Shown: positions 18,093-18,305, counted from the first letter of the stretch. The stretch: 64,000 nt of DNA from a virus (IMGVR_UViG_3300044960_000113:120281-184280); one strand, 5' to 3'. Numbers and translations are program-made. Notes: generated by a model not told the origin, from the letters alone.

Positions 18093-18167
18093 TGGTCGTC
18101 ACTATAGGTACTGCCCCTATCTAGTCTTCGTTATGAGCGAAGTGCATAACTTCTCTGCCAAGTGACG
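18093..18167 (-). tRNA. trnM: tRNA-Met(CAT) or Ile2, T-loop GGCAGTA
   Basis: CTTCG-CTCATAA-CGAAG; C1-G72 paired, so not initiator. Confidence 0.85.
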
Positions 18168-18284
18168 TTAATCTATAACTACTCTTTTAGTTCTTTTAAA
18201 AGAACCTTTTCCTTTTTTAGATTTAAAAACACGCATTTTATATTTTGGTGTTCTTAAATCTTTTGATACTATACTTTTCTTCAT
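18168..18284 (-). CDS. arfA: alternative ribosome rescue factor A (38 aa) MRKSIVSKDLRTPKYKMRVFKSKKGKGSFKRTKRVVID
   Basis: Matches the ArfA core L-x-x-P-x-[FY]-x-x-R-V-x-K-x-KKGKGS-[YF]-x-R; TAAGGAG RBS; missed by the ORF track. Confidence 0.88.
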   Translation of the reverse strand: MKKSIVSKDLRTPKYKMRVFKSKKGKGSFKRTKRVVID

Positions 18285-18305
18285 TTTTAATATCTCCTTA
18301 AAATC

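Follow-up and report, generated by a model that had tools for sequence, protein, structure and literature searches.

ArfA of Escherichia coli (YhdL; Pfam PF03889; PDB 5MDV, 5MGP, 5U4I and 5H5U) is among the closest described counterparts of the phage protein considered here. E. coli ArfA places a helix (residues 15-24) at the decoding centre, docks on RF2 through F25 and the strand of residues 27-30, and occupies the empty mRNA channel with its basic tail, only 46-48 residues being ordered on the ribosome, as set out in a 2021 review of ribosome rescue (PMC8012679). The limit for ArfA is 3 nt of message past the P site; trans-translation declines beyond 9 nt (PMC8012679). The first 13 residues of E. 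coli ArfA become ordered upon RF2 opening. Published statements confine ArfA to the beta- and gamma-proteobacteria, and a 2024 survey found it in 0 of 2,376 Alphaproteobacteria (PMC11633108).

BrfA (Bacillus) and ArfT (Francisella) are likewise small basic peptides that sense the empty channel and recruit a release factor, and BrfA is, in addition, made from a processed message; we found no sequence match between these proteins and the phage ArfA, however, and their regulation proceeds via RNase III, not via a tRNA junction. With respect to transcripts on which tRNAs and coding sequences are closely joined, the tRNA punctuation of animal mitochondrial transcripts was reportedly described by Ojala, Montoya and Attardi in 1981; this is an organellar system in which the stop codon is often completed by polyadenylation, and we know of no link between it and the control of a rescue factor. 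The tRNA cluster of phage T4, which the T4-like phage considered here recalls, yields tRNAs, small ORFs and unidentified stable RNAs from one processed transcript; to our knowledge, arfA, a tmRNA and a leader-peptide attenuator ahead of the tRNA cluster are all lacking from T4.

Here we describe an arfA gene in a 64-kb stretch of viral DNA (the window), which is the end portion of a 184-kb virus record (27% G+C; 32 tRNAs by ARAGORN; CheckV completeness 52%). The record covers about 52% of a phage genome of roughly 350 kb. Megablast with 4 kb around arfA returned tRNA-sized matches only, in unrelated phages. The explanation that we favour, and consider probable if not strongly so, is that the gene encodes a captured, short ArfA (mini-ArfA) that supplements ribosome rescue, in an attenuated tRNA operon whose first tRNA is released by a routine RNase P cut, at a junction made tight by packing.

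Results

Sequence relationships of the phage ArfA

The features of the locus are collected in Table 1. As the original prediction had it, the window encodes a 38-residue ArfA containing the motif KKGKGSF; the ORF is present and preceded by a good ribosome-binding site. The match to the Pfam ArfA profile, PF03889, scored 26.8 bits against a cut-off of 25.5 (E 3.5e-6) and spans residues 13-34; the margin is narrow, being 1.3 bits over the cut-off, and the score was 24.9 bits in a six-frame search. All 13 close homologues have precomputed PF03889 matches. There was no match to the phage protein in NCBIfam and nothing beyond one meaningless weak match in PHROGs, and a tblastn search of the GenBank phage collection with the 38-residue protein returned none, low-complexity masking being the probable cause. 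A profile made from the phage protein and twelve homologues matched the solved E. coli ArfA chains in the PDB (E 4e-6), with no other significant match.

Table 1. Features of the arfA locus, its associated RNA genes, and the arfA-tRNA junctions in the window and its relatives.
Feature	Position or spacer	Strand	Details
Two tandem promoter-like sites	18508-18618	-	TTTACT, 16-17 nt spacer, TATTAT, with TG; motif kept in L085 and L005
31-codon leader ORF	18364-18459	-	In-frame indels relative to L085
Intrinsic-terminator hairpin	18306-18336	-	12-bp stem, 8 GC pairs; U-run ends at arfA ribosome-binding site
Shine-Dalgarno AAGGAG	18299-18294	-	Nine bases ahead of arfA ATG; read from sequence
arfA, 38-codon mini-ArfA ORF	18284-18168	-	ATG at 18284, TAA at 18170-18168
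Non-canonical tRNA(CAU), encoded CCA	18167-18093	-	Minimum-energy fold, structural scan, L085 copy
Conserved structured RNA, 134 nt, between tRNA-Met and tRNA-Trp	17959-18092	-	L085:457-590
tRNA array Trp, Ala, Phe, Val, Tyr, Val, Tyr	17081-17958	-	ARAGORN, Rfam
Permuted (two-piece) tmRNA	32160-32506	-	RF04321, 92.7 bits against gathering score 47, E 1.3e-16
Minimal RNase P RNA, 223 nt	4484-4706	-	RF00010, 64.3 bits, below gathering score 100, E 2.6e-19
Junction, window	0 nt		Odd tRNA-Met
Junction, L085	0 nt		Same odd tRNA-Met
Junction, L087	5 nt		Canonical tRNA-Met; arfA 22 nt behind tRNA-Gln
Junction, L090/L091	6 nt		Probable tRNA-Tyr, read by hand
Junction, L086	8 nt		tRNA-Pro

The family profile aligns without gaps with residues 14-48 of E. 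coli ArfA, with which it shares the helix-strand core. In this profile alignment Tyr15 of the phage protein stands at the position of F25, such that an aromatic residue is kept; the phage segment Met-Arg-Val-x is aligned with Q27-E30, the arginine and valine being identical, and the proline of the helix-strand segment is also kept. The basic segment KKGKGS(Y/F)xR corresponds, column for column, to E. coli residues 33-41, with K-G-K-G-S being invariant in 13 of 13 homologues. After KKGKGSF the phage protein continues for eight further residues, which contain no hydrophobic stretch, and terminates at about E. coli residue 48, where the ordered part stops. The hydrophobic tail is thus missing, as had been predicted, an in-frame TAA following residue 38.

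The differences from the E. coli protein are substantial. The phage form has 38 rather than 72 codons; the first 13 residues of E. coli ArfA are absent, with three residues preceding the aligned part; and the column of A18 is occupied by a nearly invariant lysine in mini-ArfA. As judged by the alignment, the elements that dock on RF2 (the aromatic at position 25 and the strand 27-30) appear to be present; the binding half of ArfA would therefore be retained in the phage peptide, whereas the part concerned with RF2 activation appears to be missing or different. Because of the nearly invariant lysine at the A18 position, and given the loss of the N-terminal residues, activation of RF2 by the phage peptide may differ or fail.

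Comparison with the closest relative, L085, over the last 26 codons of arfA revealed differences at 15 of 78 bases (19%), which amount to 10 synonymous and 3 non-synonymous codon changes; this ratio suggests that the gene is under selection at the protein level. A 14-bp hairpin lies inside the ORF (18219-18261, minus strand; codons 9-22; z -3.9 for the whole ORF), and no consensus structure for the ORF was found across eight homologues. We considered whether this hairpin is an RNase III-type device like that of E. coli, where arfA is made non-stop by RNase III, and rejected the idea: the hairpin is in the middle of the ORF and unconserved, and a cut there would destroy the conserved core. The feature responsible for non-stop synthesis of cellular arfA, i.e. 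a hairpin or terminator in the 3' part of the ORF, is absent from the phage gene, which has an ordinary stop codon.

Distribution and genomic context of mini-ArfA

Homologues of the phage protein are 36-70 residues long and have the same core and ordinary stop codons, with no hydrophobic tail in any. They form 13 clusters in a 90% collection and 41 representatives at 50%, and occur on at least 177 viral contigs and at least 343 metagenome contigs. Relatives were also found in at least 333 species genomes, the best 80 of which (L208-L287) are all Pelagibacterales, complete 1.2-Mb chromosomes included. The Pelagibacterales genes have 35-40 codons, a normal stop codon and no tRNA nearby; in the one genome that was looked at closely the gene (L232:974-1102) has a response-regulator gene on one side and a convergent PfkB kinase gene on the other, a context that is one of cellular housekeeping, not of a prophage.

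Among cultured phages, tblastn with a 63-residue relative as the query identified mini-ArfA in Pelagibacter phage HTVC027P, Roseobacter phage CRP-212 and Caulobacter phage Cr30. The HTVC027P protein, gp30, is 'hypothetical' in GenBank; a 2025 transcriptome paper names it ArfA and reports that it is highly expressed (PMC12753301). The Cr30 match (L174:3001-3111; KF301602.1 11151-11261) is largely intergenic, partly overlapping one annotated gene, in a region with two RNA ligase genes. Elsewhere, close homologues, some of them of 38 residues, run into the adjacent protein gene or have 2H-phosphoesterase and Macro genes behind them. More generally, phage arfA homologues repeatedly adjoin RNA-repair or tRNA genes (L205:1501-2582, L002:104-3162, L060:2001-3893), their neighbours including 2H phosphoesterase plus Macro domain genes, a CCA-adding enzyme and a permuted tmRNA, which in L060 is 1.4 kb from the arfA homologue.

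The Pelagibacterales proteins and HTVC027P gp30 are 55-78% identical over the conserved core, tail-less and stop-terminated. Their genes stand alone or in protein operons, whereas those of the window and four relatives open a tRNA array or lie within one, preceded by an attenuator. On the basis of sequence, the phage gene is a member of a short (about 35-60 residues), tail-less ArfA branch that SAR11 (Pelagibacterales) carry on their chromosomes and that is frequent in phages of these bacteria, i.e. in bacteria and phages outside the beta- and gamma-proteobacteria in which E. coli-type ArfA is found, and arfA is very probably a host-type gene that the phage captured. The original prediction set the missing tail against the repression of ArfA in E. 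coli; an escape device peculiar to this phage is not supported, the trait being family-wide. Because the chromosomal genes of Pelagibacterales and the gene-overlapping phage copies are also tail-less, tail loss is no phage-specific device. We found no paper on ArfA in SAR11; the short branch has so far been noted in one phage paper (PMC12753301), and is far wider in its spread than the literature suggests, SAR11 included. The captured host-type arfA, together with the two-piece tmRNA and the base composition, suggests that the phage host is an AT-rich marine alphaproteobacterium.

This distribution bears on the possibility that the peptide binds the ribosome as ArfA does, without rescuing it, and, by holding RF2 closed or occupying empty channels, acts as a brake or decoy on host rescue. 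The absence of the N-terminal 13 residues and the lysine in place of A18 are consistent with such a role, as is the behaviour of E. coli ArfA(A18T), with which RF2 is bound and recruited, but not activated (PMC8012679). Conservation of the short form on the chromosomes of hundreds of Pelagibacterales, in a housekeeping context, argues instead for a useful cellular function; moreover, the phage copies co-occur with tmRNA, tRNAs and RNA-repair genes, and a brake on rescue would also harm translation of the phage's own messages. We therefore regard a brake or decoy as very unlikely, and favour rescue supplementation by a captured mini-ArfA.

The tRNA that abuts arfA

The 75 nt downstream of the arfA stop codon can be folded as a cloverleaf with standard stem and loop sizes, which is also their minimum-energy fold. 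The acceptor stem, with C18167 as base 1, is of 7 bp and Watson-Crick paired throughout; the anticodon CAU lies between U33 and A37 in a loop of 7 nt; the T stem has 5 bp and the variable loop 5 nt, and discriminator A precedes the encoded CCA. This tRNA(CAU) was not called by ARAGORN, and Rfam RF00005 gave no match, even at E 10, in a search of 101 nt. The standard finders miss it because its T-loop is GGCAGUA and its D-loop is without GG; neither the conserved T-loop (T-Psi-C-R-A) nor the D-loop GG is present.

Several lines of evidence establish that the tRNA is real despite the silence of the finders. A structural scan of the 184-kb record, using stems, loop lengths, U33 and a purine at 37 as its criteria, returned 13 places, all on one strand, which comprise 12 ARAGORN tRNAs and tRNA(CAU); CCA follows in 12 of the 13, tRNA(CAU) included, and the same scan gave 0 matches on 60 simulated genomes of two compositions. 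The copy in L085 differs by 0 substitutions and 1 inserted base over the 75 nt, against 19% of bases in the adjoining ORF, as expected of conservation at the RNA level. In addition, a pattern comprising a CAU loop, a GGCAGUA loop and ACCA at the right distances returned 26 viral contigs (L176-L201), in 24 of which both of the unconstrained stems form perfect five-pair helices of diverse sequence. Phage CAU tRNAs with a GGCAGUA T-loop and a D-loop without GG thus constitute a wider class, undescribed-looking, which standard finders are likely to miss. In many of the pattern-matched tRNAs the acceptor stem resembles that of an initiator, pair 1:72 being mismatched.

The window tRNA is, from its sequence, probably an elongator tRNA-Met. 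The pairing of C1 with G72 and the lack of the three G-C pairs in the anticodon stem speak against an initiator; a lysidine-type tRNA-Ile is a less likely alternative. The argument that methionine is the sole amino acid for which the phage would otherwise have no tRNA is weakened by an Rfam tRNA with a CAU anticodon at 28086-28157. In the same array, tRNA-Val(UAC) (17368-17439, minus strand) has the T-loop AGCGUAA and GU in place of GG in its D-loop; it has G55-C56 with G18-U19 in common with tRNA(CAU), and these may represent a co-varying, alternative elbow contact.

The unusual loops raise the question of whether the cloverleaf is mainly a 3' cap, protecting the arfA message from exonucleases, or another tRNA-like element, and is poorly cut by RNase P. 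It is true that the T- and D-loops are without the conserved bases read by the specificity domain of bacterial RNase P, and that arfA has no other 3' hairpin. On the other hand, the element has a full acceptor stem, discriminator A and encoded CCA, as do the other tRNAs of the array, and is free of substitutions relative to L085; the same loop type occurs in the 24 of 26 pattern-matched phage stretches with covarying stems, with no arfA ahead of it; an ordinary tRNA-Met occupies that place in L087; and the phage RNase P RNA itself is without most of the specificity domain. A protective cap is accordingly a reading to which we assign little probability, and a functional tRNA processed in the usual way remains the preferred one.

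A leader attenuator ahead of arfA and the tRNA array

Upstream of arfA are promoter-like sites, a short leader ORF and an intrinsic-terminator hairpin (Table 1). The hairpin is conserved in L085, and L086 and L090 have analogous ones. The last codons of the leader (18376-18366) can pair with the 5' arm of the terminator (18336-18325) to give an antiterminator, with a predicted duplex energy in the window of -20.2 kcal/mol, which was equalled in 0 of 300 shuffles. Nascent-RNA folds of the window, L085, L086 and L090 all show the terminator 5' arm paired with the leader's final codons and stop codon, despite their differing sequences, and this is the arm's strongest partner anywhere in the upstream region (-15.8 to -20.2 kcal/mol; equalled in no more than 2 of 300 shuffles).

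Two other tRNA clusters of the phage, at 21482-21049 (Gly-Glu-Gly-Asp) and 12224-11600 (Asn-Lys-Ile-Gln-His), share this layout, their heads (21710-21483 and 12561-12325, minus strand) containing a promoter-like site, a leader ORF of 29 or 34 codons and a terminator. In both, the terminator 5' arm pairs around the leader stop, and the leader peptides show enrichment for the amino acids carried by the downstream tRNAs. Taking all cases together, the best partner of the terminator 5' arm is at the leader stop in five of six, the pairing in cluster C resting on a reading of the sequence, where the computed pick is the antiterminator hairpin itself. We found no paper on leader-peptide attenuators in phage tRNA operons.

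The architecture encoded ahead of arfA is thus that of an attenuator, with leader, terminator and antiterminator. No phage-type promoter-like site was found between the leader and the tRNAs; given this, and the lack of space for a terminator, a common primary transcript is expected for arfA and the tRNAs. We infer that the leader-peptide attenuator opens a tRNA operon, with arfA as its first cistron. The gene would then be induced together with the tRNAs when translation falters, which would suit a rescue factor better than constitutive expression.

Two further observations concern the RNA of this region. In the terminator form, a short segment upstream of the hairpin (window 18290-18350, minus strand) can pair with the Shine-Dalgarno region of arfA; in the antiterminator form, the same anti-Shine-Dalgarno segment is instead folded into its own small hairpin, and analogous pairings are predicted in L085 and L090. 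These folding predictions suggest a second, translation-level gate on arfA. The 134-nt RNA that lies between tRNA-Met and tRNA-Trp, for which there was no match in Rfam, has 5 compensatory base-pair changes between two sequences (window and L085), and recalls the unidentified stable RNAs of T4.

The phage also encodes a permuted tmRNA, the tag peptide of which ends in LAA (ARAGORN), and a minimal RNase P RNA, which lacks most of the specificity domain and is a candidate for the enzyme that cuts between arfA and the tRNA. No SmpB or release-factor domains were found in the 184-kb record, i.e. in about 52% of the genome. The original prediction proposed two independent routes of ribosome rescue; both are indeed encoded, by arfA and the tmRNA, with host partners needed by both. 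Because no SmpB or release-factor domain is present in the 184 kb, both routes would use host proteins.

The junction between stop codon and tRNA

The prediction that the arfA stop codon directly precedes base 1 of the tRNA was correct: TAA occupies 18170-18168 and is followed by C18167, and the arrangement is the same in L085. The discriminator A offers A(-1) no pairing partner, so the acceptor stem cannot be extended; the mature 5' end is thereby fixed at C18167, exactly next to the stop codon. The further proposal that RNase P cleavage would leave an mRNA ending at the stop codon follows, as regards geometry, from established tRNA processing; a cut between A18168 and C18167 would leave an arfA message ending in UAA. 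Once the last sense codon occupies the P site, such a message extends 3 nt beyond it. A ribosome terminating there would be open to release factors, tmRNA-SmpB and ArfA/RF2 alike, and 3' trimming of the message would remove the stop codon.

We surveyed the junction in about 145 distinct homologue loci. A tRNA follows the arfA stop codon at a distance of 0-8 nt in five loci only (Table 1), all of which are in tightly packed tRNA arrays, and P0005 has the gene order of L087; the other loci, about 140, have no tRNA nearby. Spacers of 0-12 nt are the rule between the tRNAs of these arrays, and two other ORF-tRNA junctions have 8 nt; arfA is the sole ORF in the phage genome that touches a tRNA. Because homologues outside arrays overlap or adjoin protein genes, and spacers of 0-12 nt are normal within arrays, the junction appears to go with membership of a tRNA array, its tightness reflecting mainly array packing. 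Downstream of arfA, two contigs contain tRNA-like sequences on which ARAGORN is silent, namely a probable tRNA-Tyr and a probable tRNA-Leu(UAA) (L090:1633-1830), and an element about 105 nt long, in which one acceptor-like stem encloses two T-arm-like hairpins (L092:1639-1850).

A regulatory interpretation of the junction nevertheless deserves consideration, in which it is a selected device: RNase P would make a UAA-ended message, one exonuclease trim would render it non-stop, and even before trimming the terminating ribosome, its channel empty, would be accessible to tmRNA-SmpB. ArfA would rise only when trans-translation is saturated, as it does in E. coli, with tRNA processing in the place of RNase III. 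The spacer is exactly 0 nt in both the window and L085, despite the 19% difference in ORF bases, and a tRNA lies no more than 8 nt from the stop codon in five diverged loci with tRNAs of three identities (Met, Pro, Tyr). The 3 nt past the P site equal the published upper limit for ArfA and are well within the 9 nt of tmRNA (PMC8012679); the phage has its own tmRNA and RNase P RNA; and cellular ArfA and BrfA are both controlled via non-stop messages. By analogy, tRNA 5' processing would join RNase III cleavage and intragenic termination as a third means of tying ArfA synthesis to rescue capacity, a proposal that we consider unlikely. If it were true, translational distress in the infected cell would act on the rescue factor at two steps, the attenuator and the junction.

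Several observations weigh against selection for regulation. The roughly 140 loci without a nearby tRNA include the SAR11 genes and overlapping 38-residue phage forms; spacers as short as these are ordinary in the arrays, both between tRNAs and between ORFs and tRNAs; and release factors act normally on a stop codon in the A site. With the 5-8 nt spacers of L086, L087 and L090, the end of the message would be 8-11 nt past the P site, outside the range of ArfA, and a conserved ORF hairpin like that of E. coli is absent. We thus think it unlikely that the junction is a selected device, and prefer to see in it a routine RNase P cut at a junction set by packing.

Discussion

The overall results are best accommodated by the following scheme. 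Transcription would start at the phage promoters, with arfA as the first cistron. A ribosome at the leader stop codon would block the antiterminator, such that the terminator forms, whereas with the ribosome stalled earlier, or absent, there would be read-through into arfA and the tRNA array. RNase P, either that of the host or the small one of the phage, would mature the first tRNA and, in doing so, cut the message right after UAA. By default, the ribosome would terminate in the ordinary way at a normal stop codon, the message being short-lived and having no 3' UTR. By homology with E. coli ArfA, the mini-ArfA would bind ribosomes with an empty mRNA channel and recruit host RF2, with release of the peptide; during infection, it may supplement the phage tmRNA while host and phage RNAs undergo cutting.

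With respect to the ArfA family, the textbook restriction to beta- and gamma-proteobacteria contrasts with the finding of a short, stop-terminated form in hundreds of SAR11 genomes; phages that infect SAR11, Roseobacter and Caulobacter carry it too, as does the giant marine phage described here. The short forms are without the part thought to trigger RF2, and hence bear on what constitutes a minimal rescue peptide. At the zero-spacer junction, tRNA processing would define the 3' end of a bacterial-type message, in a simple case that lends itself to testing. In the phage, arfA is wired into a translation-support module comprising the attenuator, arfA, tRNAs, tmRNA and RNase P RNA; such a module suggests that phages repair translation when tRNAs or messages come under attack.
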